From an uncultured virus (IMG/VR IMGVR_UViG_2576861739_000001) (lineage: Duplodnaviria > Heunggongvirae > Uroviricota > Caudoviricetes), in IMG/VR virus record IMGVR_UViG_2576861739_000001: 23,587 nucleotides of DNA; one strand, 5' to 3'. This document shows positions 4,555 through 23,587 of the stretch, in pieces. The notes beneath the pieces are model-generated. The model was not told where the DNA came from. It made no database searches and saw only the letters and a list, made by a program, of their open reading frames with translations. The translations under genes and the position numbers were made by a program. Within the stretch, counting starts at the first letter, position 1. Each line of letters starts with the position of its first letter.

Positions 4555-4556
4555 GC

Positions 4557-5044: not shown

Positions 5045-6615
5045 AATCTCACAGATCCTCTCAATCCGGTGCTGTTGCGAAATCCAGCACGGTCACGGGA
5101 AATCTCATCTTCAATCGGCCAATCGTGACTGGATGCGTTGCCAAATGCGGATGGCAACGAACGGGGCACCGGCGTAAACCCATACTCTTCCGGTTCTGCA
5201 CGGCTGGCGGCGTAGGCCATTGCCAAAGCAACCGCAGCATCACCGTGTCGGTTTCCGGTTTTGTCGGTAGTACGTGCATCGGGAATACGGGCCACACCGC
5301 GCACCATTTTGAGAGCGCGGATATCATCCTGAATATCGCGGTCTCGCGGGAGGCTCAGCATTCCGTCTTCAAACGCAGCCTTCAGAGGCGGCATGTTTTC
5401 TCGATACCAGCTTTCAGATAGCATCACGGCCTCAACACGACTGCCGTAACGCTGCACAGTCACTTCCGCCAGATACTGGCCATTGCCCCGTGCGTCCATC
5501 TTCCCCGCCCGGAAACGGGGCAATCCATCCAGAACAAAGAACAGAACGCGCTTCTGTTCTTCAAACGGGATATTTCGCAATTCCAGCACAAAGGCCGTGC
5601 GGCGCTTCAGGTCTTTCCCGATAGCCATCACCCAGATTACGGTCAGATCTCCGCTGCGCCCGAAATCCTCACCAAACACGTAAGGGTCATTAGGGTTCAG
5701 ACTATCCAGAACCGGCATGATCTCGTCACGGCAAAACGCCAGCGTCTCCATCTTACGAATGTCTTCGGGCAGGAGGGCAAATTCTGATTTTCGATCCCAG
5801 CGAACAACTGGCACGTCTACGGAAATGCGCGCTTCAATTAACGGCAATGGAATATATGTTCCCGTGCTGGGAGACGGAATGCAGAACAATTCTTCATCTG
5901 CTGCATCCCCATAGAATTTGATAATTTCACTGCGCCACGCATCTTCTTTAACCTGCGTCCATTCGTCGCCCTTTTTCTCGCAGATCTTGCGGAACAACCC
6001 ATCCCTTAAAGCATCATCAAAGGTCGTTCTAAGCAGCTTGTAAGGTTTCCGTCCGGACAGGATGTCCTGCACCAGTAGATTGAACGGGTTCGTGTCGCCA
6101 TTATGGGTGCTGATAATAAGCACCTTGCCGCCCCACATCAGCAACGCCAGAGCAGCTTTCAAAAGTTCTTCCAGATCATCATGGAAGGCGGCTTCATCAA
6201 TAATCACCAACCCTTGCATACCGCGCAACGCACGCGGCACAGAGGGAAGAGCCAGAACCTTGTTCCCAGATGCAAAATCCATCCGAAAGACTTTAACGTC
6301 TTTCTCGGGTCGATCAGGATCATGAAAAAAGCTTTCCTGAACCTCACCGACTACCGCCTGCATGATTTCCGCGTGTTCCGCGCAGTAGTCAATAAATTCA
6401 CGGGCCATTTCCAGATTATAGCCCATGTAAAAGACATCCATGCCACCGTCCGCCTGCGCAAGACCAGCTACAAGATCGCCAACAAAAGATGCACACCAGG
6501 ACAAACCTGTGCGTCGTGATTTTTCCACGACTGTCACAGGATTTTCCCATACGGATGCCATGCAGGCCGATTGATACGTCAGAAAGATACCAGAAAGATC
6601 AGGACTTCTTGTCAT
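5041..6615 (-). CDS. Terminase large subunit (Mu gp28-like)
   Basis: EKSRRTGLS Walker A, VIIDEAAF Walker B, IISTHNG, and nuclease motifs GEDFGRSGD and HGDAA. Confidence 0.95.
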   Translation of the reverse strand: MTRSPDLSGIFLTYQSACMASVWENPVTVVEKSRRTGLSWCASFVGDLVAGLAQADGGMDVFYMGYNLEMAREFIDYCAEHAEIMQAVVGEVQESFFHDPDRPEKDVKVFRMDFASGNKVLALPSVPRALRGMQGLVIIDEAAFHDDLEELLKAALALLMWGGKVLIISTHNGDTNPFNLLVQDILSGRKPYKLLRTTFDDALRDGLFRKICEKKGDEWTQVKEDAWRSEIIKFYGDAADEELFCIPSPSTGTYIPLPLIEARISVDVPVVRWDRKSEFALLPEDIRKMETLAFCRDEIMPVLDSLNPNDPYVFGEDFGRSGDLTVIWVMAIGKDLKRRTAFVLELRNIPFEEQKRVLFFVLDGLPRFRAGKMDARGNGQYLAEVTVQRYGSRVEAVMLSESWYRENMPPLKAAFEDGMLSLPRDRDIQDDIRALKMVRGVARIPDARTTDKTGNRHGDAAVALAMAYAASRAEPEEYGFTPVPRSLPSAFGNASSHDWPIEDEISRDRAGFRNSTGLRGSVRL

Positions 6616-7192
6616 TGCTATTTACCCCAAACGCGCCCTGCATAAGCGCACGCGCTGTTTCTGCGCTGATACCGCGCCTCTTAGCTTCCGAAACAACGTG
6701 TTTTTCAGCCTGCGCTTTCAGGCGTCTTTCCACACGCTCTTCAATGGCCTTCTGGTTTTCAATGTCGGATTTGGCGGATTTGGTGAGGTGATCCAAAGCT
6801 TTTGCAAGCATCATGATGCCCTCGGGGTTGCCGTTCAGGGCAGCAATCCCACGTCCATCCGGTCCGCCTTCTTCTGCATTCTGTGCAGCCAGAAACAGAT
6901 CCAGCACAGCACTATGCAAGAGTTCAATATTCAACTGGGCAGAGCGGGATGCAGGCTCACCACCTAACTGGCGCACCAAGGCTTCCGCAATATTGCGGCT
7001 GTGCCGAAGCTTTGCCCCAATCTTTTCCATAGACTGCACATGCCGCCCCAGTGCAGAGCGGCTGATATGCGTCACGTCTAATTCACGCAGCGCGGCCAAT
7101 ATTTCATCAAGAGTATGGCCGTTACCACGCAAGCGCCCGATCTCATCCCTGATCTCAGGCTCTAACTGATCAATAGATGATGGGCGCGCCAC
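6599..7192 (-). CDS. Mu gp27-like protein (DUF3486, terminase small subunit)
   Basis: MARPSSIDQL and ISRSALGRH motifs; directly upstream of terminase. Confidence 0.88.
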   Translation of the reverse strand: MARPSSIDQLEPEIRDEIGRLRGNGHTLDEILAALRELDVTHISRSALGRHVQSMEKIGAKLRHSRNIAEALVRQLGGEPASRSAQLNIELLHSAVLDLFLAAQNAEEGGPDGRGIAALNGNPEGIMMLAKALDHLTKSAKSDIENQKAIEERVERRLKAQAEKHVVSEAKRRGISAETARALMQGAFGVNSNDKKS

Positions 7193-7194
7193 GC

Positions 7195-7500
7195 TTAACC
7201 TACCGTGCGCCGTGCTACGCCATTCACCAGAAGCTTGCCCTGTGCGGCCAACAGGCCATCATCTGTCAGACGCACGCGCCACAATTCTCCACCAGAACGG
7301 GGCATTTTCTCAATGGCCACACAGTGTCGGTGTTCCAGAAATGTCAGATCATCACGCATTGTATCGCGGTCAGTATCTCGGCCACTTTCACACACTGCCC
7401 GCAGAATTGTAGCTTCGCACAGCAGACCATCCTGCATCTGGGAGAGTGCATCCAGCACCTTACGGCGACGATCAGCCGCGATTTCCATTGTAACGCTCAT
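7195..7500 (-). CDS. Mu gp26-like winged-helix protein
   Basis: DRRRKVL...DLTFLE...LTDDGLLAAQG...GVAR pattern and position. Confidence 0.8.
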   Translation of the reverse strand: MSVTMEIAADRRRKVLDALSQMQDGLLCEATILRAVCESGRDTDRDTMRDDLTFLEHRHCVAIEKMPRSGGELWRVRLTDDGLLAAQGKLLVNGVARRTVG

Positions 7501-7649
7501 GCCCGAACTCCCCGCAGCATCCGACCACCACGCACAAGAGTGCGTAAAAATGCCTGTTCCTGTTCATATGCGGCATGACCGCGAGACACTTTTTTGAACG
7601 GCCCTGATTTTTTCGAGCGAAATACGCTGCGTTTCTTACGGTTTTTCAT
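7497..7649 (-). CDS. Small basic protein, 50 aa (not in ORF track)
   Basis: MKNRKKRSVFRSKKSGPFKKVSRGHAAYEQEQAFLRTLVRGGRMLRGVRA; ATGA overlaps with both neighbours. Confidence 0.7.
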   Translation of the reverse strand: MKNRKKRSVFRSKKSGPFKKVSRGHAAYEQEQAFLRTLVRGGRMLRGVRA

Positions 7650-7948
7650 GATTTATCACCCATGTGCCCACGAATGATCGTGTGCAGCAGATCCTTGTTA
7701 TTCTTGCCGTCCTGCTGAACGCCTTTCAGCAATTCGCTGATGGCAGACAACTGCACAGACTGTGCGCTGATTTCCGTTGGGATGCTTTCCAGAACAGCAA
7801 CCCGATCGCTCAGTTCCTGATGCGATTTTTCCAGCGCTTCATGCTGTTCAACCAACGCTCGCTGACGGCCCTGGGAAAACAGGGTAACCGCTCCGCCAAT
7901 TCCGCCTAGAACTGACAATGCACCGCCAACAATTTCCCAGGGCCACAC
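7646..7948 (-). CDS. Membrane-anchored coiled-coil protein (Mu gp25-like position)
   Basis: Hydrophobic N-terminus followed by a coiled coil; lies between lysis genes and gp26. Confidence 0.65.
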   Translation of the reverse strand: MWPWEIVGGALSVLGGIGGAVTLFSQGRQRALVEQHEALEKSHQELSDRVAVLESIPTEISAQSVQLSAISELLKGVQQDGKNNKDLLHTIIRGHMGDKS

Positions 7949-7950
7949 GG

Positions 7951-8385
7951 TCAGGCTGCCGGAGTGGCGGCTACTGCCGTTCCAGACGTTGCCGTCTGAT
8001 TATCCGTCGCGCCTGCGGAAGCAGAGGCAACGGGCGTAGTCGTTGCATCCACAGTAGATGCGGGCACAAAAATACCAGACAGATCAGCAATGGCCGCCTT
8101 AACATGCGTTACCACCAGTTCTTCAGACGGCAGCTTAATGCCCAGACCGCTCAGAATGGTCGTGGTGCCAGTCAGCGCTTCCTGAACCAGCGGGTTCGCT
8201 GTTTCAAACTTCGCAAAAGCAGACTGCAGGTCATCAATGCCGTTGTCGGCCTTCGTGACTGCTGCTTTCACTGCCGTCTGCGCCGCCGTCTCATAAACGG
8301 CCAGCTTTCCACCCAGAGCGGTGGAACCAATGCTACCCAGAACGCCAAACAGACCGGGCAGGAATGTGGAGAGATTAAAGATCAT
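7951..8385 (-). CDS. Hypothetical protein, holin candidate
   Basis: Hydrophobic N-terminus, GGGGG Shine-Dalgarno, directly after the endolysin. Function is inferred from position only. Confidence 0.5.
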   Translation of the reverse strand: MIFNLSTFLPGLFGVLGSIGSTALGGKLAVYETAAQTAVKAAVTKADNGIDDLQSAFAKFETANPLVQEALTGTTTILSGLGIKLPSEELVVTHVKAAIADLSGIFVPASTVDATTTPVASASAGATDNQTATSGTAVAATPAA

Positions 8386-8419
8386 AGAGCCCCCATAAGT
8401 GCGCTGCGTCTGCGCATAG

Positions 8420-8453
8420 AAAAACAGACCGAACGCGCCCGCGCGGCCCGATC
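8420..8453 (-). terminator. Possible intrinsic terminator/attenuator after the endolysin
   Basis: GATCGGGC...GTTCGGTC stem with G-U pairs followed by TGTTTTT on the - strand. Confidence 0.45.
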
Positions 8454-8457
8454 AAGA

Positions 8458-9177
8458 TCAAACGGACACGCTTGTCCGTTTGATTTCAGGCGCGATGTTC
8501 AGCAGGCGATGCGCGGCAAACAGGCGCGCTTCCAGCCGCTTAATCCAAGTCGCACCGAATTGAGAAAATGATTTCAGGCTGCGGTAATAGGCTTCCTGCA
8601 CAGATGCGAGCGCGTAAAGCAGCAAAGCCATTTCAGCATTTTGTGAGACCACGGCAGCGAGTGTCTTTGGTCCTGGCATGCCGTCAGGAGAAACGCCGAG
8701 ATATGATTGCAGCTGCTGCGCATATTTGACTGACAGAAAAGCACACATTTCCTGCGCCGTAGCTGCAGACAAACAGGAAAGTGTTTTCGGGCCTATTTCA
8801 CCATCTGGAACGGGCACACCAACAATGCGCTGCAACCCGTGCGCAGCAGCTGAGGTTCCTGCATTAAACCCGTGATCAAAGATCATCAGATCTACGCCCG
8901 TTGGCAGATCACTACAGCACAGCACGTCCCAAAATCGCTCTGTGGCAATTTCATGATACTGATCAACGGTAATATGCTGCATCATGCCGCGCGTCACAGC
9001 GCTGCGAGAGCCCAGAACACACGCCATCAATGCAGCCGAAATTCCGTATTTAGTGCCAGCCAGCAGGCCAACGCCAACACGACCACCGGACCAGTTTCCC
9101 TGATCAGCGCGATTGCACTGATAAGATCCTTCCTGACCCAAGGTGAAGTTTAGAGATTGTGAAAGATTGGCTTGCAT
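8458..9177 (-). CDS. Endolysin, glycoside hydrolase family 108
   Basis: EGSY...D.GNW...GTKYGIS catalytic motif, LPTGVDLMIFDHGFNAG and two DG.(I/P)GPKTL repeats. Confidence 0.9.
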   Translation of the reverse strand: MQANLSQSLNFTLGQEGSYQCNRADQGNWSGGRVGVGLLAGTKYGISAALMACVLGSRSAVTRGMMQHITVDQYHEIATERFWDVLCCSDLPTGVDLMIFDHGFNAGTSAAAHGLQRIVGVPVPDGEIGPKTLSCLSAATAQEMCAFLSVKYAQQLQSYLGVSPDGMPGPKTLAAVVSQNAEMALLLYALASVQEAYYRSLKSFSQFGATWIKRLEARLFAAHRLLNIAPEIKRTSVSV

Positions 9178-9206
9178 GCACGCACATTATGATTTCCATG
9201 CCTTGC

Positions 9207-9231
9207 ATAGGATTGTGCGTGTTTTCGTCAG
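9207..9231 (-). promoter_or_regulatory. Late promoter/activator site upstream of endolysin (Plys-like)
   Basis: 21-bp identity with 805-825; CATAAT -10-like hexamer 8 nt before the ATG. Confidence 0.8.
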
Positions 9232-9237
9232 TTCGGG

Positions 9238-9615
9238 TTAGATGCCAAACATATCCATCTGGTTGGGGTTTATTCCGCGGCCGACTTTACGGTCAAGTGA
9301 TGGATCTGATTGCAGCAAATTGCTGACCTGTCGCCAAGATATACCCAACCGGCTGGCGATCTCGTTATTGCTCAACCCACGTCGGGCCAGAACATGCGCA
9401 CGCCACGTCTTCACCAATGGCACCTGATATGATGACCCACCGTGATGATTGACCAATTCTGCGGCTAATTCTGCGCCGTACAAGTCAGAGAGAAGTGAGC
9501 CGGGCGCATTGCGCGGGACCATGATGCGTTGGCCTCCAGCGCTTTCTATGAACAGCAATGCAGCATCTTCGCCCACGGCATTAACAAGCCACGAAATAGA
9601 CGCAGGAGGCTGCAT
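9238..9615 (-). CDS. Mor/C-type late transcription activator
   Basis: VGEDAALLF...GGQRIMVP repeated module and a C-terminal HTH (LSNNEIASRLGISWRQV); sits just before the lysis genes, as Mu C does. Confidence 0.75.
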   Translation of the reverse strand: MQPPASISWLVNAVGEDAALLFIESAGGQRIMVPRNAPGSLLSDLYGAELAAELVNHHGGSSYQVPLVKTWRAHVLARRGLSNNEIASRLGISWRQVSNLLQSDPSLDRKVGRGINPNQMDMFGI

Positions 9616-9630
9616 TGTTATTCCTCTCGT

Positions 9631-9795
9631 TTATTGTGTTTGAAAGGCCTTTTTAGAGGCGTTCAAAATGCGTTCAACAGCATAATCACACATCTGATCC
9701 TGTATCCTAACGCTTTCCTCTGCTGTTGTCGCGTGTTTTCCAGAAATGACTGCCTGGCGGATAACAGAACGTATTGTCTCTTCCAGTTCTTTCAT
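9631..9795 (-). CDS. Hypothetical protein, 54 aa (not in ORF track)
   Basis: MKELEETIRSVIRQAVISGKHATTAEESVRIQDQMCDYAVERILNASKKAFQTQ; ATGA overlap with the upstream gene and fills the gap. Confidence 0.7.
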   Translation of the reverse strand: MKELEETIRSVIRQAVISGKHATTAEESVRIQDQMCDYAVERILNASKKAFQTQ

Positions 9796-10088
9796 TTCAC
9801 GTTTTTCAACATATCTCTGATCTCTAAACGGATCAGTTCTTTCATAGAGTTTTCTATTCGGCTGCTATATCGGCCCAAAATGTAGGCAGCCAAAGAATCA
9901 TGTGCATCATGAAGCTCTTTTCCTGCCTTGAAGGCATCTGAAACCATATTAAGTAATGTATTTTCAAGATATTCTTTAGCAGTTTTTCTGGAACGAAATT
10001 TATGTAAGTTCCATATGACCCTGCCATCCAGACTTGTCATTTTTCTGATCTTGATATTAGACCATCTGGCCATCTTTTGATCAGACAT
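9792..10088 (-). CDS. Hypothetical protein (AT-rich)
   Basis: 98-aa ORF overlapping both neighbours in the operon. Confidence 0.7.
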   Translation of the reverse strand: MSDQKMARWSNIKIRKMTSLDGRVIWNLHKFRSRKTAKEYLENTLLNMVSDAFKAGKELHDAHDSLAAYILGRYSSRIENSMKELIRLEIRDMLKNVK

Positions 10089-10500
10089 CTTGTGCTTCCA
10101 GCCGTTTGCGCCAAGCTTTCAATCCTTCAATCACACTGCGAGCTGCAGGTTCGTCCAGAAACTCAGGAGCACTCACGCCTGTCTGGCGCTGCACATATGC
10201 GCGCAATGCGTCCCTCGTGCCGCCGCTCCGCAGCATGGGAGCCATATCGGCCCAAATAGCGTAAACTTTCCGCACCCAAGGCTTATGGCTCGTTTTCTTT
10301 GCCCTAAAGCCCAACCGCTTCATTTCTTCCAGAACATCATGTAGCTGGCCGATAGACAGTTCTGTTGATGATGTTTTGTTGGTGACCCGTTGAAGGAGGG
10401 CGCGGTAATCCGCGTCCTCCAACCCTAGTTGTTTGCGAGCAACGTGCAGCTTACGCATCATTGCTGTGCGGTTGGCATTTTTATCATGCTGAACGTTCAT
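10081..10500 (-). CDS. gemA: GemA / Mu gp16 family (DUF1018)
   Basis: KLHVARKQLGLEDADYRALL...KTSSTEL...GF and VIEGLKAW motifs. Confidence 0.9.
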   Translation of the reverse strand: MNVQHDKNANRTAMMRKLHVARKQLGLEDADYRALLQRVTNKTSSTELSIGQLHDVLEEMKRLGFRAKKTSHKPWVRKVYAIWADMAPMLRSGGTRDALRAYVQRQTGVSAPEFLDEPAARSVIEGLKAWRKRLEAQDV

Positions 10501-11135
10501 AACATCTTTTCCACAACGGGAATTTTCGAGAACTGCAACACAACCTGCTGCCAGTCCTGGTCGTGACGTTCCCGCCAGTAAAACCGCAGGTATGATTTGC
10601 TGCTTGTCACCTCAATGCTATTTGCAACTGCGTCAAGCACGTCAGGCCAACGCGGGTGAGACAACTTGATGCGGCGCACTTGCTGTAGTCGCTCAACATT
10701 CACTCTCCCAGTTTTTTCGTCTGGAACAAAAGCCGCTTCCAGAAGAAGGCGAATATCTGGGTTTACGTCTTCCATCAGGTCATCCAGAACCTCGCCCATC
10801 AGAGCTTGGGCAGCCACAATATCTGATGTGACACGCCGAAAATCAGCAATGGATAGATCTACACGGAAGCAGTCATCCATGCTGGATGCTGATATCTGAC
10901 CACGAGAGTTCTTCCTCTTTTTCGCCCGATAATGCGTAAGAAGTCTTTCTTCGTAATCTTCAATCTTGGCATACATGCGCATTTTTGTTTCGCGCATCAG
11001 GTCATGCAGGGCCTTTGCATCTCCGACCATCTCAATGGCAAAATCGTTTGCCAGAAGTGTGCTGGTCGCAACCTTTGCTCGTGGCCATGGGCCAGAGCAG
11101 GTCATGACTGTGCCTTCGCGATTAACTTCGATCAT
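10497..11135 (-). CDS. DUF3164 family protein
   Basis: AAF..D.KTGRVN, HPRW..V.DAV.NSI and SKSYLRFY.R motifs typical of Mu-like early regions. Confidence 0.8.
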   Translation of the reverse strand: MIEVNREGTVMTCSGPWPRAKVATSTLLANDFAIEMVGDAKALHDLMRETKMRMYAKIEDYEERLLTHYRAKKRKNSRGQISASSMDDCFRVDLSIADFRRVTSDIVAAQALMGEVLDDLMEDVNPDIRLLLEAAFVPDEKTGRVNVERLQQVRRIKLSHPRWPDVLDAVANSIEVTSSKSYLRFYWRERHDQDWQQVVLQFSKIPVVEKML

Positions 11136-11146
11136 TTCTATATCTC

Positions 11147-11479
11147 TTAGTGTTTTGTTGTTGCCTGTGCGTTCGCAATATCGGACTGAAGCGTGTCGAT
11201 TTTTATTTGCGTGCGCAGCAAAATTGCTATGATGAGTGCGTGTGTGGCCGCTTGCTCAACATCACGATACATCTTGGACATCGTCCTGCATGCTTGTTCG
11301 GTTTTCTGATCAATGTTCAGATTGGACGCATACAGGCAGATAGCCACTCTATCCGCTAACGCTTTCAGCGTTGTGACCGAGCTTGCAAAATCAACCGTTT
11401 TATCTCCAGATAACGCCTGTTTCAGATGCCGTTTTACGGCTTCTGCCACGCCATCAATATCAACAGTAACATCGCTCAT
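11147..11479 (-). CDS. Hypothetical protein
   Basis: Translationally coupled ORF in the early operon. Confidence 0.7.
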   Translation of the reverse strand: MSDVTVDIDGVAEAVKRHLKQALSGDKTVDFASSVTTLKALADRVAICLYASNLNIDQKTEQACRTMSKMYRDVEQAATHALIIAILLRTQIKIDTLQSDIANAQATTKH

Positions 11480-11709
11480 GACCGCACTTCCTGAAACTCA
11501 ACATCAATAATTTCCGGCATCGTCTGCACGGGCATCCGTAGCAGCGTGAATGCTGCCTCAAGTTCGCTCGCCATACGGTCAAACCAGTCCGCCGCCTCCT
11601 GCCGGTCATGGCATGACAACACAGTGACGTCCTTGGGCTGGGCAAACAGCTGCGCACCTGTACGCAATTGTTGAACAACGCCGCCGATCTGTTCGAGAGG
11701 TGTAGCCAT
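11476..11709 (-). CDS. Hypothetical protein
   Basis: TAATG and ATGA coupling to neighbours; GGAGG Shine-Dalgarno. Confidence 0.75.
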   Translation of the reverse strand: MATPLEQIGGVVQQLRTGAQLFAQPKDVTVLSCHDRQEAADWFDRMASELEAAFTLLRMPVQTMPEIIDVEFQEVRS

Positions 11710-11990
11710 TAGATTGCCTCCATCTGGGACAGGATTTCACTGGCCGTTGTTTCGGCCGGATAGGATTCAAAGAACTCGCGGACCACTTGCCGACGCTGAT
11801 CACCGGCAATGTGCGTTTCATGCCGCAAGACAGCGACCAAATGGCATGCTGTTGCTGCTGGCTCAGCACTCCGCAAGAATGCGCGAATATCCCGTAGGAG
11901 AGCGCGGTAACGCTCATCCTGGGCAAAAATAGTCCCTTCAACGACCTCAGTTAGAACATCGTGAGGGACTGGCATTTCAAGTGTTGTCAT
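11709..11990 (-). CDS. Hypothetical protein
   Basis: Starts 4 nt after the MuB stop and is coupled to the next gene. Confidence 0.75.
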   Translation of the reverse strand: MTTLEMPVPHDVLTEVVEGTIFAQDERYRALLRDIRAFLRSAEPAATACHLVAVLRHETHIAGDQRRQVVREFFESYPAETTASEILSQMEAI

Positions 11991-11994
11991 GGCC

Positions 11995-12957
11995 TTATCC
12001 CTGCACGCGGATTTTAGGGAATTCGCCAGTCATGTGTTCACCCCAAGCATATTCAAGGTCTTTCTTGGTGATCTGATCACGCCTGTTTACACGGGCAATT
12101 TTTGTAGCGTTGCGCAGCACTTTGCTCATGCTCCGCAATCCACCCGCGCAGCGACCGATTTCCTTGGCGCAAAGCTGCACCTCTTCATCCTTCACACCTT
12201 CCCACCCGGCAAGGATGGCGCACATGTCTTTCTGTCGAGGCTTGTTGATCTTCCGGCGCAATCCAATACGGCTGAACAACTGTGCATAGTCTGCTGTTCG
12301 TCCCAGACCATCAAACTTGGCGTTCAAAGGCGCGTTTCCCATGAATACAACGCCTACTTTTGCCTGATCATGAATGGACCTTATTTCTTCAACAGCTTTG
12401 ACGGAAAGATGCTGGGCTTCATCAATGATCAGCACCGCCTCCGTGCCTTTCAGGCGGCGGATAATGGAACGAATGCGGCGCTGTCCCTTATCATTGCAGC
12501 CCAAGGTTTCTGCAATTTCCAGCAAAACAGCAGAAGGACTGGACAAACTTGGGTCTGCCGTAATCAGAAACACATTGTTGGTGCGTTTCTGATACTCTTC
12601 TGCAGCCATGGTCTTGCCTGTTCCCGCATTTCCAGAAATTACGGCCAGATCCACGTCATACTGCGCCGTTTCAATCATGTTCATGATCGTTCTGGCCGTT
12701 TCCGTCATGATAAACCCTGGAACAACTGGCCGTGCGGATCTGTTCCGCTCTTTAGTTTCCTGCGCTTCAAGCCATAACTGCAGCTTACCAGCTACCTTTT
12801 CATTATCCCCGGTATAATTGCCGCCAAGGAATGAGCTGATCACTGGTCCAGACACACCACATGCAGTTCCGATCTGTGTCAGGGAGAGCTGATCACGGTC
12901 TTTACGATCCCTTACGGCATCACGCAGGCGTGCGTAGTCATTCATGATCTGTGTCAT
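11995..12957 (-). CDS. MuB-like transposition AAA+ ATPase
   Basis: N-terminal HTH, GNAGTGKT Walker A, LIIDEAQHL Walker B and AQLFSRIG. Confidence 0.95.
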   Translation of the reverse strand: MTQIMNDYARLRDAVRDRKDRDQLSLTQIGTACGVSGPVISSFLGGNYTGDNEKVAGKLQLWLEAQETKERNRSARPVVPGFIMTETARTIMNMIETAQYDVDLAVISGNAGTGKTMAAEEYQKRTNNVFLITADPSLSSPSAVLLEIAETLGCNDKGQRRIRSIIRRLKGTEAVLIIDEAQHLSVKAVEEIRSIHDQAKVGVVFMGNAPLNAKFDGLGRTADYAQLFSRIGLRRKINKPRQKDMCAILAGWEGVKDEEVQLCAKEIGRCAGGLRSMSKVLRNATKIARVNRRDQITKKDLEYAWGEHMTGEFPKIRVQG

Positions 12958-12999
12958 GTGTAAAAATTTCCTCGTTTATTGGAGCGTTATTGGCTTAAT

Positions 13000-15046
13000 T
13001 CAGTCTTCGTCAGTATCCACAAGTCGCAGCGAGCGCGTTGTTGGTCGTGTCTGTTCGTTATACTTTGTCAGCCAGTCTGCTTCTTCATCTTCGTCATGCG
13101 CCACTGCTGCATTCCCGTGGCTAATAGGAGCCTTCGGGCGTAGCGGCCGCACAACTTTGGTTTCGGGCAGATCCGGTTCTGGTGTTTCCACATCCCCGTA
13201 AATACGTGCCAGTTCCTGCCGATTAACCCGCACTTCCGCTTTTTGAAGTTCTTTTGTGGCCCGTTTGAACGCCTTATAGGCGCGCGCCTGGCTCTGGGCT
13301 GCCTGCTGATCTGCAAATCCGGCTTTCTCAACACAACTGGCAGCACCCAGATACGTGCCGTCAATTCGGTAAACATGCAGATCATCCTGCAATGCCTGCG
13401 GGTCAAACCGAACAATTACAGACGTGCCGCGATGTTGATGTAGAAATTCGGCCCAATACCGATTGTCGGCCAGAGAAATCACACCATCGCGGCGCGCAAC
13501 AGTTACACTTTCCGCTGCCATCAGGCACAGTCTGCGCTGTTCCTCCGTTGCTGTTACAATTTCACCACGGTTTGCGGCCTGCGCATAACTTTCCGCAAAT
13601 ACGTGGTCAAAACTGAATTTGCCCTGGCACACGTCAGAGCGACGGCCGACACGGGCGTTGTGTTCCCGAATACCCTCGGCAACCACCTCCAGAAACACAT
13701 CCAGATCCACAGCATTGCTGCCGTAGTTCTCGGGTTTGCTGGTAACGGTGTTCCCTGTATATGCCCCGGCAAAACGCGGGTGCTTGGCCAGATCGCCAGC
13801 CAGATCGCGCCATGCGCGTTCAATAGGTTTGGAACGTCCGCTGTATGGTGTAGCCCAGTGCACCTCTACACCCAGCAGGGGCAGGATCCCCATTGGCTCA
13901 TCATCACGTACCTTGAACCGATAACGGTTCTGCACACCGCCGGTCAGCCATTTTGATGCAAAGTTGCGCCCGTTATCCAGCCAGCATTTTTTCGGAATGC
14001 CGTATTTGGCGACCATATCGCCAAATGCCAGGCGCACGCATTCCTTGTTTTCAGAAACGTCCACCCGCCAAGATAGAATTTTGCCACTGTAAATGTCCTG
14101 AAAGCCGACTAAAACGGGCCTGATAACCTGTTCCTTGCCATTTTCAATCCAGCGCACGAACACATCGAACTTGTGACCGTCTGCGTTGACGGCTTCCAGA
14201 GCATGAAACACGGTATGGTCTCGTTTCTGTGCAGGAAACATGGTTTTCAGCGCCTGTTCGCCTTTGCGACACAACGTCACCAGTTCAGGTGGCAGAGCAT
14301 CCATGCGGCGCTTGAGTGTTTTGGCTGAAGGCAACTTCCAACCTTGCTTGGAAGCATGTTTTTCCAAGCGGCGCATACACGCACTGAATGTTGGCTGTTC
14401 CAGACGCAGGAAGTCGGATTTCAGAATATCCCATGCCTCAGTCGGGCAATCCACTAACTCCTGATGCTTCGCATAATGCGGTGCCAATGCAGCCAGCCAG
14501 TCACAATGGTTCACGCCATGCACAGCGCGATACCAGCGGTGGATCGTCGCAACGCTAACACCTTCATCACGACCGATCTGGATGATGGACAACTTCTTCT
14601 GCAGTCCAGCAGCCACCAGCATCTCAACCGCCGTGACGATACGGTGTGCCTTTTTAGCCCGTGCCTTCAGGCTTTCCGGCAAAGCATCGTAATGCCGCCA
14701 CAGATCCTCACGCTCACGTTTCTGGTCATCGGCATTAAGCTCATCTGCCTTTGCTTCTTGCGCCTTAATGGCAAGAGCAGCGCGCGCAGGAAGAGGCAAC
14801 CCTGAAGCCGCTCTTCCTATACATCCTGGACCAAAGAGCAGCGCGCGCAGGAAGAGGCAACACATACGGCGTGAACTCAAACCCGCCACCCCGACCGCTG
14901 CGCTTTCGCCAAGACTTGCCTTCATTATCTGGATCAAGCCAGTTTTCGGCCTTCGCCTTTCTTGTGATTCCCTGAGTAGTGGCGGGAATACCTGGTAGCG
15001 CCATTCCTGACAGTTCAGCAGGCGAGAACCAATGAACGTTACTCAT
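13000..15046 (-). pseudogene. MuA-like DDE transposase frameshifted by a 61-bp insertion
   Basis: The N-terminal Mu DNA-binding domain (WFSPAEL...GRGGGFEF) is in ORF 14765-15046 and the core (NADGHKFD, LDNG, SKPIER) is in another frame. Removing 61 bp gives a continuous 661-aa frame. Confidence 0.9.
14773..14861. repeat. 28-bp direct repeat flanking a 33-bp unique insert
   Basis: AAGAGCAGCGCGCGCAGGAAGAGGCAAC at 14773-14800 and 14834-14861. Confidence 0.97.
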
Positions 15047-15498
15047 CAGAACTTCCCTCCCATCTGCCGACGCAGCCCGCTTTCCATCCGAGCGAGTTTC
15101 TTTTTCTGTTCAGCCACGGCTGCCAGTTCAATCATCGGTAGAAACCGGCGCTCAATCACGGCCCAATCACGCGGTGCGGCCATCAGTTCCAGCAGACGGC
15201 GATCCTGTGTTGCACCAATCAGTGCATCAAATCGCGGAACACTGATCTGGTGACCGTCACGCTGCACACTAGCGTAAGCGTTAAGCATATTGATGCTGAT
15301 AGGCCGTGTCAGGATATCGCTCATACGTTCGCACACCTCGGCTCGGCTCATGCCGCAGTCATCCAGCGAAACAGAAATCGCACGGGCCAGCTGATCAGAA
15401 AACGTGTTGCCACGTATGAGAAACGGGTCAAACGCCGCCACAGGTTCAGGTGGTGTCCAATCCAGCAGTGACAGCTGGCGTTCATCTTTGCGGATCAT
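15046..15498 (-). CDS. Phage regulatory/hypothetical protein
   Basis: Coupled to MuA (TGATG); HTH-like segment MSRAEVCERMS...MLNAYAS. Confidence 0.75.
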   Translation of the reverse strand: MIRKDERQLSLLDWTPPEPVAAFDPFLIRGNTFSDQLARAISVSLDDCGMSRAEVCERMSDILTRPISINMLNAYASVQRDGHQISVPRFDALIGATQDRRLLELMAAPRDWAVIERRFLPMIELAAVAEQKKKLARMESGLRRQMGGKF

Positions 15499-15767
15499 GC
15501 TGCCAGCCTTTCGTTACCCAGCCGCAGATCTGCGTCTGCCTGCACGATTTCCAGAAAAACGCTCTGAGGGCAGTCCATGGCCCACAGCATATCAAACAGC
15601 GTATTCATGCGATGACTATATTTCCCGCGCTCCATGTCACCCACAGAGTTTCTGGTAAGGCCACATTCTGTAGCCAGAACTTCAATCGTCCAGCCACACC
15701 GCATACGTTCACGACGGATGATTTTTCCCACAGTAGCTGACAGGGCCTGCGCATTTACGGTTTTCAT
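15495..15767 (-). CDS. XRE-family HTH protein
   Basis: IRRER...WTIEVLATECGLTRNSVGDMERG. Confidence 0.85.
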   Translation of the reverse strand: MKTVNAQALSATVGKIIRRERMRCGWTIEVLATECGLTRNSVGDMERGKYSHRMNTLFDMLWAMDCPQSVFLEIVQADADLRLGNERLAA

Positions 15768-16582
15768 TCTGCGTCTCCCATGTTCATTTCAGGTTCAAGA
15801 TAGGCATGGAATTTCATTCGTGTTGCGCTGTCAGCCTTTTCCCAAAGCGCAACCAGCTTGTCATAAAGGGTTGGTTGCTTCTTTTTGGGCTGCCCCTTTA
15901 TCTGCCTGATAATCTCGGCAACATTTTTTACGCCGGGCCAATGCGCGACAAAATCCGCTATCTGACGCTGCATGTCGGGAGTTTCGCGCCCCAACGCATC
16001 CAGTTGTGCGCCGCTGCCAGCCAGCCATGTGTTGGCAATTTTTTCGCGCACATCAGGAACAATTTTGCTATAGAGTGCAACTGAGCGCCTGATGGATCGC
16101 GCATCAAGACCGAGTTTCTGGGCAGATGCCTCGGTAAAGGACGGTATCAGGTGGACAAGATTGTCCATCTGATCCGACCGTCTATCACCACCACGCTTGG
16201 TTTCCGGGTGAAGCGTTTCGTAAACCTCCTTCCGCTTCGCCAAAAATGTTGCCCTATCAAGCGGGCTCAATTCACGACGGCAGATATTCTCGTCAATTTC
16301 CAGCAGTTGTGCCTGCAAGTCGTCGGCCTTCACCACCACGGCAAATGCTGTTTCTATGCCAGCCATTTCCAATGCCCGCACACGGTGCGCACCGGCAATC
16401 AACTGATACCGTTTGCCGATTTTACGCACTTCAATCGGGGTGCGCTGCCCTTGTTCCTGCATGCTGGCAGCAATAACAGCAGCTGCATCATCATCAATCG
16501 CACGCAGACGGTCACCAACGTCAATTTGTGACAAGGGGATAGAGACCACTGCTGAGAGTGGCTGTGGAACCTGCACGTTCAT
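15764..16582 (-). CDS. ParB N-terminal domain protein
   Basis: GQRTPIEV, LIAGAHRVRA, EIDENICRRELS and a downstream HTH. Confidence 0.9.
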   Translation of the reverse strand: MNVQVPQPLSAVVSIPLSQIDVGDRLRAIDDDAAAVIAASMQEQGQRTPIEVRKIGKRYQLIAGAHRVRALEMAGIETAFAVVVKADDLQAQLLEIDENICRRELSPLDRATFLAKRKEVYETLHPETKRGGDRRSDQMDNLVHLIPSFTEASAQKLGLDARSIRRSVALYSKIVPDVREKIANTWLAGSGAQLDALGRETPDMQRQIADFVAHWPGVKNVAEIIRQIKGQPKKKQPTLYDKLVALWEKADSATRMKFHAYLEPEMNMGDAE

Positions 16583-16884
16583 GCCGCCACCTCATTTTGA
16601 CGGTGCGCGGCGCACGGCAGCGCTGTAGGGATACGAGCAACAGTAATGGAAATAGGAGAGCCATCCCGATGATACCGATCCGGCCAGATAGCCTGAGGCT
16701 TCATCTTCAGAACTTTCGCGATTTCATGTTCGATAGGAACCGAATAACCGGGCGTAGCAATGGTTTTGCTAACCGAACGGCTATCTCGACCAATCTGTCT
16801 GGAGAATGCAGCTAGAGCGCCGAACATTTTCCGCAGTGCGGCCTTAATGTCCTCCGGGTGCATTCCCTTATGCTTTTGTGGCAT
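16579..16884 (-). CDS. ner: Ner-like DNA-binding protein
   Basis: MHPEDIKAALR...IA...PQAIWPDRY; divergent from the repressor. Confidence 0.9.
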   Translation of the reverse strand: MPQKHKGMHPEDIKAALRKMFGALAAFSRQIGRDSRSVSKTIATPGYSVPIEHEIAKVLKMKPQAIWPDRYHRDGSPISITVARIPTALPCAAHRQNEVAA

Positions 16885-16904
16885 AGTAGGTCACTCCTGA
16901 TTCG

Positions 16905-16928
16905 AGGGCGGCTGCCACCGCCCTTTTT
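16905..16928. other. GC-rich hairpin in the early leader (U-tract on the + strand)
   Basis: AGGGCGG-CTGCCA-CCGCCCT followed by TTTT. Confidence 0.5.
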
Positions 16929-16974
16929 CTTCAACCCCGTTCAGCGACTTTTCGCCGCTGATAATCGCCGCGAG

Positions 16975-17090
16975 TTGTTCCGTAAGAATAGTATTTTTCG
17001 GAATATCCGCAAGGAAAAATCAGATGGTTCAAGTTTTTTCATGTGGAAAAGATGTGGATAACTACTATTTTCCGCAGTTTCCCGCACGTT
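16975..17090. promoter_or_regulatory. Divergent promoter/operator region between ner and the repressor
   Basis: AT-rich, with recurring TCCG(C/T)A and TGTGGA half-sites in direct and inverted arrangement. Confidence 0.55.
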
Positions 17091-17105
17091 TTTGCTCTGG
17101 AAAAA

Positions 17106-17858
17106 ATGTTTATGTCTGATTTTCAAGAAAGCGAGGGAAACTTGAAAGAGGATTTTCGCTTTGATCGACTGAAAAATGCTGTGGAGAAAGCTGGTGGCAA
17201 CGCTCAAGTTGCTGGAGCCTGCGGCATCGCCGTTTCAACGCTGAGTTCTTACATGAACGGCGCGGAATGGAAGTTAAGCGTAGCGCGGAAAATAGCAGCA
17301 GCCTGCAACGTAAGTTTACCTTGGCTGTTATTTGGTAACGACTTGGCGGAACGACACTCTCCGCCCATGCCTAACAGCAGACCAACAGCTCATATTATTG
17401 AAGTTTGTAAGCCTAGTAATGATGTCAAAGTCCCTTTTTACGATGAGGCTGAGGCAAGCGCTGGTTTTGGCCTTCTAGGTCCAGATACTCCAGCTCCTTT
17501 GATGGTGAGTATATCTAAGGATTTTCTGGAGAAGCTTGGCTTGCCATCCCACCATACTATTATGCTCAAAGTCCGCGGTGACAGTATGGAACCGACACTA
17601 AAGACGGGAGATACCATAATATTAAATACATCTCCGTCCCGCTCATTAAGCGGTGTGACAGTATTCGTATCGTCCGGCCAGCTAATGGTTAAACGTCTGG
17701 CTCCTACAGCGACTGGAACTGTTCGTATTATTTCTGATAACGATAGATACCCTACAGAAGAGGCAGAAATCAGCCGTTTCCGCTGGGGGCATCCTGATGG
17801 TGACGATGCGATTACAATCATAGGCCGCGTGGCTTATAGGTTGCAGGCAATGTCATAA
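17106..17858 (+). CDS. CI/LexA-type repressor (HTH + S24 peptidase); start uncertain (17043/17106/17112)
   Basis: N-terminal HTH, ASAG cleavage site, GDSMEP (Ser) and MVKRL (Lys). Confidence 0.9.
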   Translation: MFMSDFQESEGNLKEDFRFDRLKNAVEKAGGNAQVAGACGIAVSTLSSYMNGAEWKLSVARKIAAACNVSLPWLLFGNDLAERHSPPMPNSRPTAHIIEVCKPSNDVKVPFYDEAEASAGFGLLGPDTPAPLMVSISKDFLEKLGLPSHHTIMLKVRGDSMEPTLKTGDTIILNTSPSRSLSGVTVFVSSGQLMVKRLAPTATGTVRIISDNDRYPTEEAEISRFRWGHPDGDDAITIIGRVAYRLQAMS

Positions 17859-17885
17859 ATAACTATTTCTTAGCGATATAAAGAA

Positions 17886-18455
17886 ATGACCGAGAAAAAA
17901 CCGGCACGAGGGAGAGAGTTATTCCTTGGTGTGGTAATAATTGCATTTACTATGGCTATTTTTGTCCATGTATTTGGGGGCAATGACACATCATATGCAC
18001 CAACACCTGATGATAAGCCACGACAAGACATGCTGGAAACAGCTGAATTCCACGGAATACCTAATAAAAAACAGGATACAGCCCGGAAAGCTGTAGACGC
18101 ATTACTTAATGCGTGCCCAAATATTTCTAAATACGCTGTTCATGGTGAGAACTTAAAAGTCTATTACTATCCAGAAGGCTGGGAGCAAACGCCAGCTCAT
18201 CTAGATGTAGAACTGGACCTGACACCAGAGAGCCTGAAATCCCTGCCACAAGGCCTGAGAGATCCCCAGTGGGGCGGTCACGTTGAGATAGGTCTGTCTG
18301 GTGGCCAAAAACCCGGAGCAATCATGGAAACACCATTGCCAATGTGGTTATGTGATTTGCCAGTAGATGAAGACATTCTCTCTAGTGCCAAGAGAAACTG
18401 GGTTCAGACAAAACAATTTGTCTCTCTTCCTGGCATCGCTCAAAATAGCTTCTAA
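17886..18455 (+). CDS. Membrane-anchored hypothetical protein (prophage cargo)
   Basis: Single N-terminal TM helix; starts 27 nt after the repressor stop. Confidence 0.75.
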   Translation: MTEKKPARGRELFLGVVIIAFTMAIFVHVFGGNDTSYAPTPDDKPRQDMLETAEFHGIPNKKQDTARKAVDALLNACPNISKYAVHGENLKVYYYPEGWEQTPAHLDVELDLTPESLKSLPQGLRDPQWGGHVEIGLSGGQKPGAIMETPLPMWLCDLPVDEDILSSAKRNWVQTKQFVSLPGIAQNSF

Positions 18456-18999
18456 AAGGGTCTTAAAACGCCTGTTTAAGAAATAGGGTTATCGTCTGGA
18501 AAGTCTCAAACTTCCTGTCCAAAAAGCATAAATCGCTCTCAAGTCGCAGACACGGGAATGTCTATAGGAACGATGTGTAGGGCATAGCAAGGAATGCCAA
18601 TAATCGGCGGTTTTCCTCACGTTATTATCCCACCAAATCCCGTATCGTCCCGTTTAATCCCGTCTATCTTCTAGTCTCATTCCATGTGTCCCCTTACACA
18701 GATTATTCATTCTATCTCAATAAGATGAAATTTTATTATGTTCTGAAGATTTATGAACTTTTCAGAATCGCCCTATACCATTCCTTTGCGGCCATAGAAA
18801 CATTCTGAGCGGAAAATAAAGGGATTTCAATTTATGTCATAATTTTAATTTTAAAAGTTCTGTTTATATAAAAAGAGATTTCTCATAAATTTACTATTTT
18901 TGAAAATAAAAATTGCTAACCATTATGGTCCTGTTTCCCTTACACAAAGCTTGGAAAATAATTTCTAAAGTCTCCTGACAGATTCGTAAGGAAACAAAA

Positions 19000-20742
19000 A
19001 TGTCCTCCCCCGCACTCATCTCGGTTAACGCAGGCGTTGCCACCATTTACAGTAGTGGAGACCTATCCAGCCTTGCCCAGATTTCGGCTCTGTCTGGCAT
19101 TATTGTTACCCGCAACGCACAAACCCCGGCAGATGACCCGGTGGTGGTGGATTTTACATCCGGCCTTGCAGGCGTAAGCGCGCTGTCCTACGTAAGCGTA
19201 CGCAACGGCGCAACCCTGATAAATGATGGCGGGCTGGCCAACATAACCGCTCTTAAAGCCATTAATATTGATGGCGGAACTTACGAATCCACCACCCAGC
19301 TTCTGGATGTTTCAGCACTTTCAGGCATTACCATCGGGCCTGCGGGTGGGGTGCTTAAAATTGATCAGCCCGGCCTTGCTGCGGTTACGCTTAACCTGCC
19401 TATCTCTTATGTAGATGACAAAGGCAACGCCACCAGCACACCGCCAGACAATTTTGTGCTGGATTTGCCCTACCAGAAATTTCTGGGTGGATCACTTGCT
19501 GTTCCTATCAGTGTCAACTATTTTAATGGCGTCACCACCGTTCAGGATGATACCGGGCCAATCACACAGCTTTTGGGCCTTGCAGGCATCAACGTGCTCA
19601 CCCGCACCATCTATATTGATGGCAACCCGTTTGACATGAAAAACGGCCAGACCAAGATATATGATGATTCCAACGGCGCCTCAGATGCCCTTATCTGCTT
19701 TTTGCCCGGCAGCATGATCCGCACCCCCAACGGTGATGTTGCTGTGGAAAACATGGTGATGGGGCAAGAGGTTCTGACATTTGATGCAGATGGTCAGGCC
19801 ACCGCGCGCCCCGTTACATGGGTGGGCAAGGCACAGGCCCGCGTCAACCCGGATCAGCCAGATGATATGGCCGGCTACCCTGTGCGTGTGCGCGCCAACG
19901 CCATTGCCGCAGGCGTGCCCGAAGCAGACCTGCTGATTACGCCAGAACACAGCCTGTATCTGCAAGGCCGCTTTGTGCCTGCGCGCATGCTGGTAAACGG
20001 CACATCCATTGTGTACGACAAAAACATTACCAGTTACGATTACTACCACATTGAAACCGAAGACCATGCCGTTATCATGGCCAACGGCACGTTTACAGAA
20101 AGTTATCTGGATACCGGCAACCGCGCCAGCTTTACGCAAACCGGTGCCGTGGCACGCATTGGTGCCCCGGTTAAAAACTGGGCGCAGGATGCCGCCGCCA
20201 CGCTGGAAACCTCCCGCGCGTTTGTAGAACCTCTGTTCCACACTTTGGCCACACGTGGCAGCACGCTTTACCCGGCGCAGCAGGCCGCGCAGCCTGCCGC
20301 AACATCTCGCCAGCCCAACCTGCATCTGGTTCTGGCAAATGGGCACACCATCCGCCCACTGCGGCACAATAAAGATACCTATACCTTTATGCTGCCCGCG
20401 CAGGATTTGGAAAATGTGCATCTTGTCTCCCGCACATTCCGCCCGTGTGATGCAGAAGGCCCGTTTGTAGATGACCGGCGCATTATGGGTGTGGCTATTG
20501 GGCAGATCAGCGTGGCCTCTGCGGGCACCGTGCACGCCATCACCACACATCTGAACACCGATGATCTGCAAGGATGGCATATTATGGGAGCCTCCCGGCG
20601 CGCACGCTGGACAAACGGCCACGCCGTTCTGCCGCTTCCCGCAGGGTTGCAGGGGCTTTGCCTGCTACAGGTGCAGGTGCTGGCAACAGGTACATACACC
20701 ATGCAGGCCGAGGCCACGGCAGAACGCAAAGAAGCTGTATAA
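19000..20742 (+). CDS. Hint domain-containing protein
   Basis: ICFLPGSMIRTP, LLITPEHSL and YYHIETEDH..IMANG..TESYLDTGNR motifs; adhesin-like N-terminal region. Confidence 0.92.
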   Translation: MSSPALISVNAGVATIYSSGDLSSLAQISALSGIIVTRNAQTPADDPVVVDFTSGLAGVSALSYVSVRNGATLINDGGLANITALKAINIDGGTYESTTQLLDVSALSGITIGPAGGVLKIDQPGLAAVTLNLPISYVDDKGNATSTPPDNFVLDLPYQKFLGGSLAVPISVNYFNGVTTVQDDTGPITQLLGLAGINVLTRTIYIDGNPFDMKNGQTKIYDDSNGASDALICFLPGSMIRTPNGDVAVENMVMGQEVLTFDADGQATARPVTWVGKAQARVNPDQPDDMAGYPVRVRANAIAAGVPEADLLITPEHSLYLQGRFVPARMLVNGTSIVYDKNITSYDYYHIETEDHAVIMANGTFTESYLDTGNRASFTQTGAVARIGAPVKNWAQDAAATLETSRAFVEPLFHTLATRGSTLYPAQQAAQPAATSRQPNLHLVLANGHTIRPLRHNKDTYTFMLPAQDLENVHLVSRTFRPCDAEGPFVDDRRIMGVAIGQISVASAGTVHAITTHLNTDDLQGWHIMGASRRARWTNGHAVLPLPAGLQGLCLLQVQVLATGTYTMQAEATAERKEAV

Positions 20743-20768
20743 AAACGCTTTATTGCAAATACATGTTT

Positions 20769-20809
20769 TGCAAAAAGGGGCTGGTGCGTAAGCATCGGCC
20801 CTTTTTGCA
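20769..20809. terminator. Bidirectional intrinsic terminator
   Basis: TGCAAAAAGGG...CCCTTTTTGCA inverted repeat between convergent genes. Confidence 0.85.
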
Positions 20810-20831: not shown

Positions 20832-21365
20832 TTATTTTAAAACCTTGCTGTGTGCAGGCATGGTTTTTGGGGTGCGTTTTCTTTTTTCCTGCGCTGCACG
20901 GCGGAATGTTTCCTCCAACGCGGCCAGCTGTTCCAGCACAAGGGCACATTGCGCCGCAATCTTGCGTTGGGCAGAACTGCTGGAAATGGTGGGGAACAGG
21001 GCCTCCCCCATAGCGCGGAAGGAAAGATCATCCACCAGCATCATGCGCAAACGCTGGTGGGCGCACAGGCCCAGTGCATCACGCACCGCGGTAATACGCG
21101 CCATGGCCTGCGCACGCACCATCTGCCAGGATACGGCATCATGCCGCACGGTCTGGCCTTGTGGGGCGGGGCTGGTGTGTTCCAGATAATCATAGTAGCC
21201 AAATACATAGTTGCGGCACCAGCGCTCTGCGGCATCGGCGGCAGCCTGCGTAATGTCTCCGGCATGTAGCAGCCCCTGCACCGTGCGGCGCGGGCGGTTA
21301 AGCGTGGCCTGTGCCATAAGGGCATTGGGGGTTGGGGCCTGTGTGGGTTTTGTATGCGTTTTCAT
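20832..21365 (-). CDS. Phage-type hypothetical protein, possible late regulator (DUF6456-like)
   Basis: Start MKTH with AGGA Shine-Dalgarno; LLHAGDITQAAADAAERW helix and C-terminal HTH-like segment. The family call is tentative. Confidence 0.55.
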   Translation of the reverse strand: MKTHTKPTQAPTPNALMAQATLNRPRRTVQGLLHAGDITQAAADAAERWCRNYVFGYYDYLEHTSPAPQGQTVRHDAVSWQMVRAQAMARITAVRDALGLCAHQRLRMMLVDDLSFRAMGEALFPTISSSSAQRKIAAQCALVLEQLAALEETFRRAAQEKRKRTPKTMPAHSKVLK

Positions 21366-21384
21366 AAACAGTCCTGAAACATCA

Positions 21385-21933
21385 TTATTTTTGCAAATCT
21401 GGTGCACGCGTATCAAGCGCCAGCAGCGCCTTGCAGCCGCGGGCATCGCGCCAGATGGTGTTTGCAAAAGGCAGCAGCACGGCACGCAGTTCTGCCGGAA
21501 CTGGCCAGCGCGCACCTACAGGGTAACCATTGCGGGCAGGCTGGCGCGCCCATGCCAGACGCGCCTGCGGGCACCACGCCCCTACGGGCATATCCGCACA
21601 GACCTCGTATATGGCGCGGCATTGTGCTGCGGCATCTGCCGCCCCCGGTGGGTTGGAAACAAGCTGCCCCAGTTTTTTCAACCACGCGGCCACAATGGGT
21701 TGGCTAACCGGCTGCATGGCCCCCTGCACATGGGCCATAACATTGGGCGGCATATCCCGCGCAGTTAGGGCCACACCCTCACGCAGGGCGGCAAACAGAG
21801 CTTGCACATCTGGCGGCGCAGGCGTGTAGCCACCCCCACCCTGCGGCACTGGTGGCGTGGAACAGCCCTTGCCCGGCCCTCGCCACGCTGCATGCGGCTG
21901 CACCGCGCTTGCGCTGTGTGAAAGAGGCGGCAT
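21385..21933 (-). CDS. Hypothetical protein (position of a helicase-loader-type gene)
   Basis: ATG 21933 lies 1 nt after the upstream stop. Confidence 0.65.
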   Translation of the reverse strand: MPPLSHSASAVQPHAAWRGPGKGCSTPPVPQGGGGYTPAPPDVQALFAALREGVALTARDMPPNVMAHVQGAMQPVSQPIVAAWLKKLGQLVSNPPGAADAAAQCRAIYEVCADMPVGAWCPQARLAWARQPARNGYPVGARWPVPAELRAVLLPFANTIWRDARGCKALLALDTRAPDLQK

Positions 21934-21934
21934 G

Positions 21935-23561: not shown

Positions 23562-23587
23562 GCGCGCATGGCTCCGGCATGGAATAG

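Follow-up and report, generated by a model that had tools for sequence, protein, structure and literature searches.

How does a phage transposase gene come to hold, within its coding sequence, a short exact duplication wrapped around a piece of unrelated DNA? The question is raised by a stretch of 23,587 nucleotides from an uncultured virus of the Caudoviricetes (IMG/VR record IMGVR_UViG_2576861739_000001; "the window" below means the whole of this stretch), in which the Mu-type transposase gene of a prophage was interrupted by 61 bp. These very probably derive from an ectopic integration, independent of a protospacer-adjacent motif (PAM), of a self-derived spacer by the type I-E Cas1-Cas2 integrase of a CRISPR system in an Acetobacter host. 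The evidence lies in the geometry of the insertion, the uninterrupted gene in other sequencing runs, the origin of the inserted DNA in a cas gene, and the dimensions of the array beside that gene.

The interruption consisted of an exact 28-bp direct repeat, AAGAGCAGCGCGCGCAGGAAGAGGCAAC, present at 14773-14800 and 14834-14861 (copies 100% identical, start-to-start spacing 61), with an unrelated 33-mer between the two copies:

14773..14800, no strand: left copy of the 28-bp target-site duplication (pseudo-repeat), holding the GC-only palindrome GCGCGCGC
14801..14833, plus strand: 33-bp insert, read here as an ectopic spacer; the plus strand is the cas2e coding strand
14834..14861, no strand: right copy of the 28-bp target-site duplication, joined directly to 14772 in contigs of four other runs (X4, X8, X9 and X18)

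The repeat is not extendable, as neither its left neighbours (c/a) nor its right ones (again c/a) agree between the copies, and the division into 28 + 33 is unambiguous on the window alone; as the cas2e donor described below continues with an A, the split could equally be 27 + 34. This pair was the sole direct repeat of at least 18 bp within 120 bp in the whole 23.6-kb window, and chance is therefore excluded. A first-pass annotation, made from the window sequence alone, had located the two copies and the 33-mer, and its coordinates and sequences proved correct when the window was re-checked.

The interrupted gene lay on the minus strand and was split over two open reading frames (ORFs), which correspond to the following pieces:

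14765..15046, minus strand: N-terminal transposase fragment of 93 codons with an HTH_Tnp_Mu_1 domain, identical at 71/71 positions to residues 1-71 of an intact relative (P0003)
13000..14861, minus strand: remaining part of the transposase gene, no longer in the reading frame of the start codon, with the I-gamma helix-turn-helix, the DDE core and the C-terminal domain

Over the two ORFs, the full MuA domain set was found in a Mu-like gene context, with HTH_Tnp_Mu_1 (E = 3.2e-8) in the N-terminal fragment and HTH_Tnp_Mu_2 (E = 8.5e-29), DDE_2 (E = 1.8e-59) and Mu-transpos_C (E = 4.8e-13) in the minus-strand ORF 13000..14937. In the N-terminal fragment, the first 71 codons were native, after which the frame crossed the insert to a stop, and the peptide LPLPARAAL, encoded by the 28 bp, was present in both pieces. 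Since 61 cannot be divided by three, the insertion shifts the reading frame behind native codon 71 and so truncates MuA after its first DNA-binding subdomain. Deletion of the 61 bp had been claimed to restore a frame of 661 amino acids; this was borne out by script, the computed deletion giving a single open frame of that length reading ...FTPYVLPLPARAALAIKAQEA..., and by P0003, itself intact at 661 amino acids, of which residues 63-661 were 97% identical to the rest of the transposase. Named relatives retrieved by protein search belonged to Acetobacter persici (84%), A. lovaniensis (81%) and A. fabarum (77%), and the scan of genome contigs gave only relatives of 47% and 39%, in two metagenome-assembled genomes. 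The transposase region had no match in the Escherichia coli genomes searched, and E. coli was ruled out as host on this ground.

For comparison, contigs of four runs, each from a different study (X4, X8, X9 and X18), were aligned to window positions 12000-20800; these were assembled sequences and not raw reads, and none of the runs was the likely source of the record. One contig per run, in 4/4 runs, omitted exactly 61 bp at the junction of 14772 with 14834, so that the 28 bp fit either side, and the X4 contig showed 0 other differences to the window over 750 nt. The insertion allele was found in none of these runs. Since all four skip the 61 bp and an intact 661-residue relative exists, the 61 bp are a strain-specific insertion. 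The first-pass annotation had looked to related MuA alleles for a check of its reading, and both the empty site and the intact P0003 agree with it.

The inserted 33-mer was 33/33 identical to a single place in nine Acetobacter pasteurianus plasmid records (PLSDB), and 34/34 when window position 14834 was included. The match falls at the 3' end of cas2e. This gene comes last in a type I-E operon on A. pasteurianus megaplasmids, and the operon is complete (cas3, casA, casB, cas7e, cas5e, cas6e, cas1e, cas2e). At one such plasmid locus (L003), the protospacer occupied 12001-12033, the cas2e stop 12072 and the first CRISPR repeat 12147, placing the donor 113 bp upstream of that repeat. Full-length matches to the 33-mer in the searched databases were limited to cas2e of these plasmid records, with no match in IMG/VR, JGI metagenomes or INPHARED phages and no second copy in the window. 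Partial matches to Rhizobium and Sinorhizobium plasmids (18-23 nt, E ~1-3) look like chance, and a remnant of an insertion sequence (IS) or of a miniature inverted-repeat transposable element was ruled out by the 33-bp size and the unique donor in a cas gene. The database search proposed in the first-pass annotation thus found its source in the A. pasteurianus I-E system.

Moreover, X4 and X9 each possessed a contig matching only the 33-mer, with 30-nt loose ends identical to the cas2e flanks of L003, and therefore cas2e DNA and the phage co-occur in the same fermentation-type communities. Depth in the bin of the 33-mer jumped, in X4 from 27 to 127 and in X8 from 16 to 87. As regards the position of the donor, a review describes the region next to the leader-repeat junction as an acquisition hotspot in the E. 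coli I-E system (PMC10011333), and self-derived acquisition next to arrays is also reported for Pyrococcus furiosus, where it was ascribed to nicking during acquisition (PMC5737086). As a separate observation, 33 nt of the early-operon (transposase) transcript, read from the minus strand of 14801-14833, would be antisense to the cas2e mRNA at its 3' end, which is probably incidental.

The array of the A. pasteurianus I-E system is of the GTGTTCCCC...-type. In L003 it follows cas2e (12147-13580) and repeats GTGTTCCCCGCACACGCGGGGATGAACC(G) 24 times, the period being 61 bp throughout. It comprises 28+1-bp repeats and 32-bp spacers; when repeats are counted as 28 bp, all 23 spacers of one strain and all 22 of another are 33 bp long. 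The 29th repeat base was variable, being G in 22/23 and A in 1 in the first strain, and G in 20/22, T in 1 and A in 1 in the second. Because of this variability, each event in this array can be taken to duplicate 28 bp and insert 33 bp, and Goren et al. 2016 (PMC5039180) give 28 bp as the necessary and sufficient functional I-E repeat. E. coli I-E adaptation follows the same rule, its 33 inserted bp being a PAM-derived G and 32 more. Both values, 28 and 33, and the 61-bp period are also those of the insertion in the transposase.

Two plasmids (L003 and L021) whose Cas proteins had the same accessions held only 7 trailer-end spacers in common, with 16 and 15 differing spacers on the leader side. 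That only trailer spacers were common to both points to an acquisition that was polarised and recent, the module being active in the lineage. The spacers of both IFO-type arrays (23 + 22) gave no match to the window, the best being 23/33, so that priming by these arrays is unsupported.

The core claim of the first-pass annotation, that off-target integration by I-E Cas1-Cas2 frameshifted the transposase, is strongly supported by the empty site (4/4), the cas2e donor and the array geometry. In the proposed sequence of events, I-E Cas1-Cas2 would have taken up a 33-bp prespacer from its own gene cas2e, excised at the 3' end ~113 bp upstream of the junction between leader and repeat, in a source strain that presumably carried the I-E plasmid at the time. 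Instead of the first CRISPR repeat, the integrase would have attacked the region encoding the N-terminal DNA-binding domain of the prophage transposase, at a site whose core is palindromic and rich in GC and which resembles the repeat modestly. Two strand transfers, staggered by 28 bp (full-site integration), with Cas1-Cas2 as the likely catalyst, followed by gap repair, would have doubled the 28 bp and yielded the 28+33+28 arrangement. The net gain of 61 bp would then have shifted the frame after codon 71, leaving no full-length transposase and a prophage unable to replicate by transposition. MuA is essential for Mu replication, and the prophage should for this reason be immobile.

Several results weigh against this explanation. 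No AAG PAM was found in register at the donor, where the triplet that closes with the insert's first base is GGC when the cas2e (+) strand is read and GTT when its complement is. That first base is C (+) or T (-), not the G that begins 22/23 and 20/22 of the natural spacers; AAG was found 4-6 nt inside the insert. The pseudo-repeat agreed only modestly with the A. pasteurianus I-E repeat, at 13/28 positions (46%) on the plus strand and 10/28 on the minus strand, in a test chosen post hoc in which 2.9-4.6% of random sites score as well (2.9% of window sites in either orientation). No leader-like flank was present, identity to the 60-nt leader in register being 14/60 and 10/60, at chance, and the AT content of the flanks was 0.50 and 0.38 vs 0.70 in the leader. 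In addition, the insertion allele was seen in the window alone, the other evidence coming from assembled contigs of four non-source runs, and a near-identical genome was not found among 401 + 401 sampled genomes, the host species being one that we infer. As to the PAM, the first-pass annotation had expected an AAG-like motif and had counted a source lacking one as contrary to its proposal; the source found has GGC or GTT in that position. Because no more than up to 50% of new spacers carry AAG in naive acquisition in E. coli, according to a review (PMC10011333), and because non-G first bases also occur in natural arrays, the missing PAM was not taken as refuting, and it lowers the odds somewhat. 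Without a PAM, the spacer would be useless for interference.

Other features of the target were also assessed post hoc. On the minus strand, GCGCG stands at the position of the inverted repeat 2 anchor GCGGG, 8 nt from the border, a likeness that 4.5% of sites reach with at least 4/5 positions. The 28-mer also holds one of the seven GC-only 8-bp palindromes of the window, a feature of 0.6% of sites. Such repeat-like, anchor-like and palindromic features are suggestive only. E. coli Cas1-Cas2 reportedly prefers palindromic or cruciform DNA. At the RNA level, the pseudo-repeat formed no stem that could serve as a Cas6e stem-loop (minimum free energy -1.4 and -1.0 kcal/mol), whereas the true repeat formed a 7-bp stem (-14.4 kcal/mol). 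As both the hairpin and a leader-like flank are lacking, no CRISPR RNA is expected and the unit is not a working array; the "nascent array" of the first-pass annotation is therefore apt for the geometry (28+33+28) and not for the function.

What else might have set 28 duplicated bp around 33 bp of cas2e? A mechanism unrelated to CRISPR, such as template switching in the course of replication or repair, filler DNA at a staggered break, or another integrase or transposase with a 28-bp duplication, would accord with the absence of an in-register PAM and the modest target-repeat similarity, and also with the fact that Cas1-Cas2 catalysis is deduced here and not observed. Such an origin is nevertheless improbable: the left junction shows no microhomology and the right one a single nucleotide, 28 and 33 are each the I-E values of the system whose own gene gave the insert, and a cargo of 33 bp is too small to encode or carry transposon ends. 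No IS family is known to leave a 28-bp target duplication. Transposition by Mu itself, which produces 5-bp target duplications, was rejected on that difference, and so was a casposon, as casposons make duplications of another size and carry large cargo.

More improbable still is that the source record owes the 61 bp to an error of assembly or sequencing or to a laboratory construct. The sighting of the insertion allele in the window alone, with all four other runs uninterrupted, would suit such an origin, but assemblers do not make an exact 28-bp duplication around a 33-bp gene piece of another replicon, and the geometry fits a known enzymatic product. In addition, three runs of the source sample, which are not independent, contained 100% of the sampled words of 13500-20800. 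A functional mini-array or antisense element borne by the phage against host cas2e, as a means of counter-defence, is hardly credible. The spacer does match a cas gene, the minus-strand early-operon transcript would be antisense to the cas2e mRNA as described above, and orphan arrays with anti-cas spacers are mentioned in PMC13142298. Against this, the unit destroys the phage's own transposase and is absent from the phage copies in 4/4 other runs, its flanking repeats are not CRISPR repeats and lack a Cas6e hairpin, and there is no PAM for interference.

Apart from the probable off-target integration, spacers that match the window mark this phage as a natural target of CRISPR in Acetobacter. 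The second spacer from the leader end of an array on A. pasteurianus plasmid NZ_CP039845.2 (L004 6002-6034) was 33/33 identical to window 16835-16867, at the start of a Ner-like gene, where a canonical AAG PAM occupies 16867-16869 on the minus strand. This array has a 61-bp period, with no cas gene annotated within 6 kb, and its spacer is natural I-E immunity against this Mu-like phage. An X9 contig matched the window up to 15385 and then ran into TATTCCCCGCGTCTGCGGGGGTTAACCG, a repeat of I-E type; the stretch before it (window ~15352-15384) is probably a further wild spacer aimed at the phage, for which the PAM would be ATG. The host genus is probably Acetobacter, to judge by the identity of the insert with cas2e, the matching plasmid spacer and the named relatives of the transposase. 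For a cognate I-E module in the host, the evidence covered A. pasteurianus plasmids, which have complete operons and divergent leader-side spacers, and runs X4 and X9, in which cas2e contigs occur beside the phage. Among 401 genomes of the class of genome G001, cas1e was detected in 8/401, with best identities of 65-72%. A Hint-domain flank protein had a match only in G095 of the five genomes tested, and comparison of 401 genomes of the family of G095 with the window DNA gave only transposase matches of 64-69% and short chance matches.

Window positions 1-18698 were the left part of a Mu-like transposable prophage, with genes for a repressor, a Ner-like protein, a ParB-like protein, a regulator, the broken MuA, MuB, a Mor-like activator and an endolysin, followed in this inventory by the small and large terminase, the portal, a MuF-like protein and a protease. 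All prophage frames were open except that of the transposase. Further annotated features, and the end of the prophage, were the following:

11995..12957, minus strand: MuB-like DNA transposition protein (phrog_296, E = 1.9e-79), frame open
16579..16884, minus strand: Ner-like early repressor gene, holding the natural I-E protospacer at 16835-16867
17043..17858, plus strand: prophage repressor, CI/LexA-like (phrog_4, E = 1.3e-40), divergent from the early operon
18697..18698, no strand: repressor-proximal end of the Mu-like prophage (...CA), where contigs of other runs end or diverge

At this end, the X8 contig stopped at 18698, the X18 contig diverged there and the X4 contig stopped at 18699. 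Because these contigs stop or diverge at 18698, the same phage occupies other insertion sites elsewhere, as expected of a phage inserting by transposition at different sites.

Beyond the prophage end, a flanking protein of 580 amino acids (19000-20742) had no PHROG match and had weak relatives (28-38% identity) six times in one sampled genome. The contig depth of its middle part (19644-20525) reached up to 964 in X4 and X8, and so the domain it represents is repeated, or multi-copy, in those communities. Further on, 20832-23587 had 64% GC vs ~53% in the prophage, and its ORF 20832-21515 matched phrog_16492; the segment may be a second, unrelated mobile element beside the prophage end. Neither Rfam nor tRNA scans gave any match in the window.

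The first-pass annotation had gone on to see adaptation itself as an anti-phage mutagen. This is not supported as a function, being an interpretation of one event of which the frameshift alone was observed. It seems doubtful that off-target Cas1-Cas2 integration is a recurrent mutagenic force in wild I-E bacteria and that this event was retained because it immobilised the prophage. Were it so, the adaptation machinery would contribute to prophage domestication independently of interference, and scars of the 28+33+28 form, if sought systematically, could serve as a register of integrase errors and of the starting points of new arrays. The locus itself offers a natural case in which the empty site, a donor in the system's own cas2e, a matching 28/33 array and the knock-out of a prophage transposase were all identified. 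It would mean that adaptation by CRISPR systems has a cost, or a side-effect, for genomes in the wild. The view that an integrase is fed by DNA adjoining an active array also gains support from it, and its target, prespacer and enzyme together form a concrete substrate for asking what makes non-CRISPR sites attackable.

The locus is a new, unusually well-resolved natural case of a phenomenon known mainly from laboratory work, and an equally resolved one may already be in print. In 2018, Nivala, Shipman and Church reportedly described in Nat Microbiol the off-target integration of spacers, giving "neo-CRISPR" loci, by the E. coli I-E Cas1-Cas2, a laboratory study said to have used over-expressed Cas1-Cas2 and electroporated oligonucleotides. 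For natural off-target integration, a citing preprint (10.1101/148544) speaks only of "circumstantial" evidence, in two other species. The present locus resembles neo-CRISPR loci in the I-E integrase that is its probable author, the insertion outside arrays, the target duplication of repeat length, the insert of spacer length and the possible disruption of a gene. Unlike the laboratory loci, it is natural, its empty site, donor and cognate array are all identified, its donor is cas2e itself and its target a prophage transposase.

With canonical I-E adaptation and its two molecular rulers, as presented by Goren et al. (PMC5039180), the locus shares the 28 bp duplicated, the 33 bp inserted and a GC-rich core at ruler distance; it departs from it in having no leader, no inverted-repeat hairpin, 13/28 repeat identity and no PAM-derived G. 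A comparably low target similarity is found in a study of P. furiosus Cas1-Cas2 (PMC6698737), in which an off-target site 43% identical to the repeat was used efficiently in vitro. Full-site integration with borders one repeat-length apart is common to both cases, at ~43% identity there vs 46% here, whereas the P. furiosus work was done in vitro on a plasmid, with another CRISPR subtype and a 30-bp spacing.

Like the self-spacers taken from acquisition hotspots (PMC5737086; PMC10011333), the insert has its donor next to an array, in cas2e, 113 bp upstream of the leader-repeat junction. Hotspot self-spacers enter the array, whereas this one came to lie within a gene of a prophage. For isolated or orphan mini-arrays, an origin by off-target acquisition was reportedly proposed by Shmakov et al. 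in 2020 (CRISPR J). The present unit resembles them as a repeat-spacer-repeat unit away from cas genes; unlike those mini-arrays, which have recognisable CRISPR repeats, its "repeats" are transposase coding sequence.

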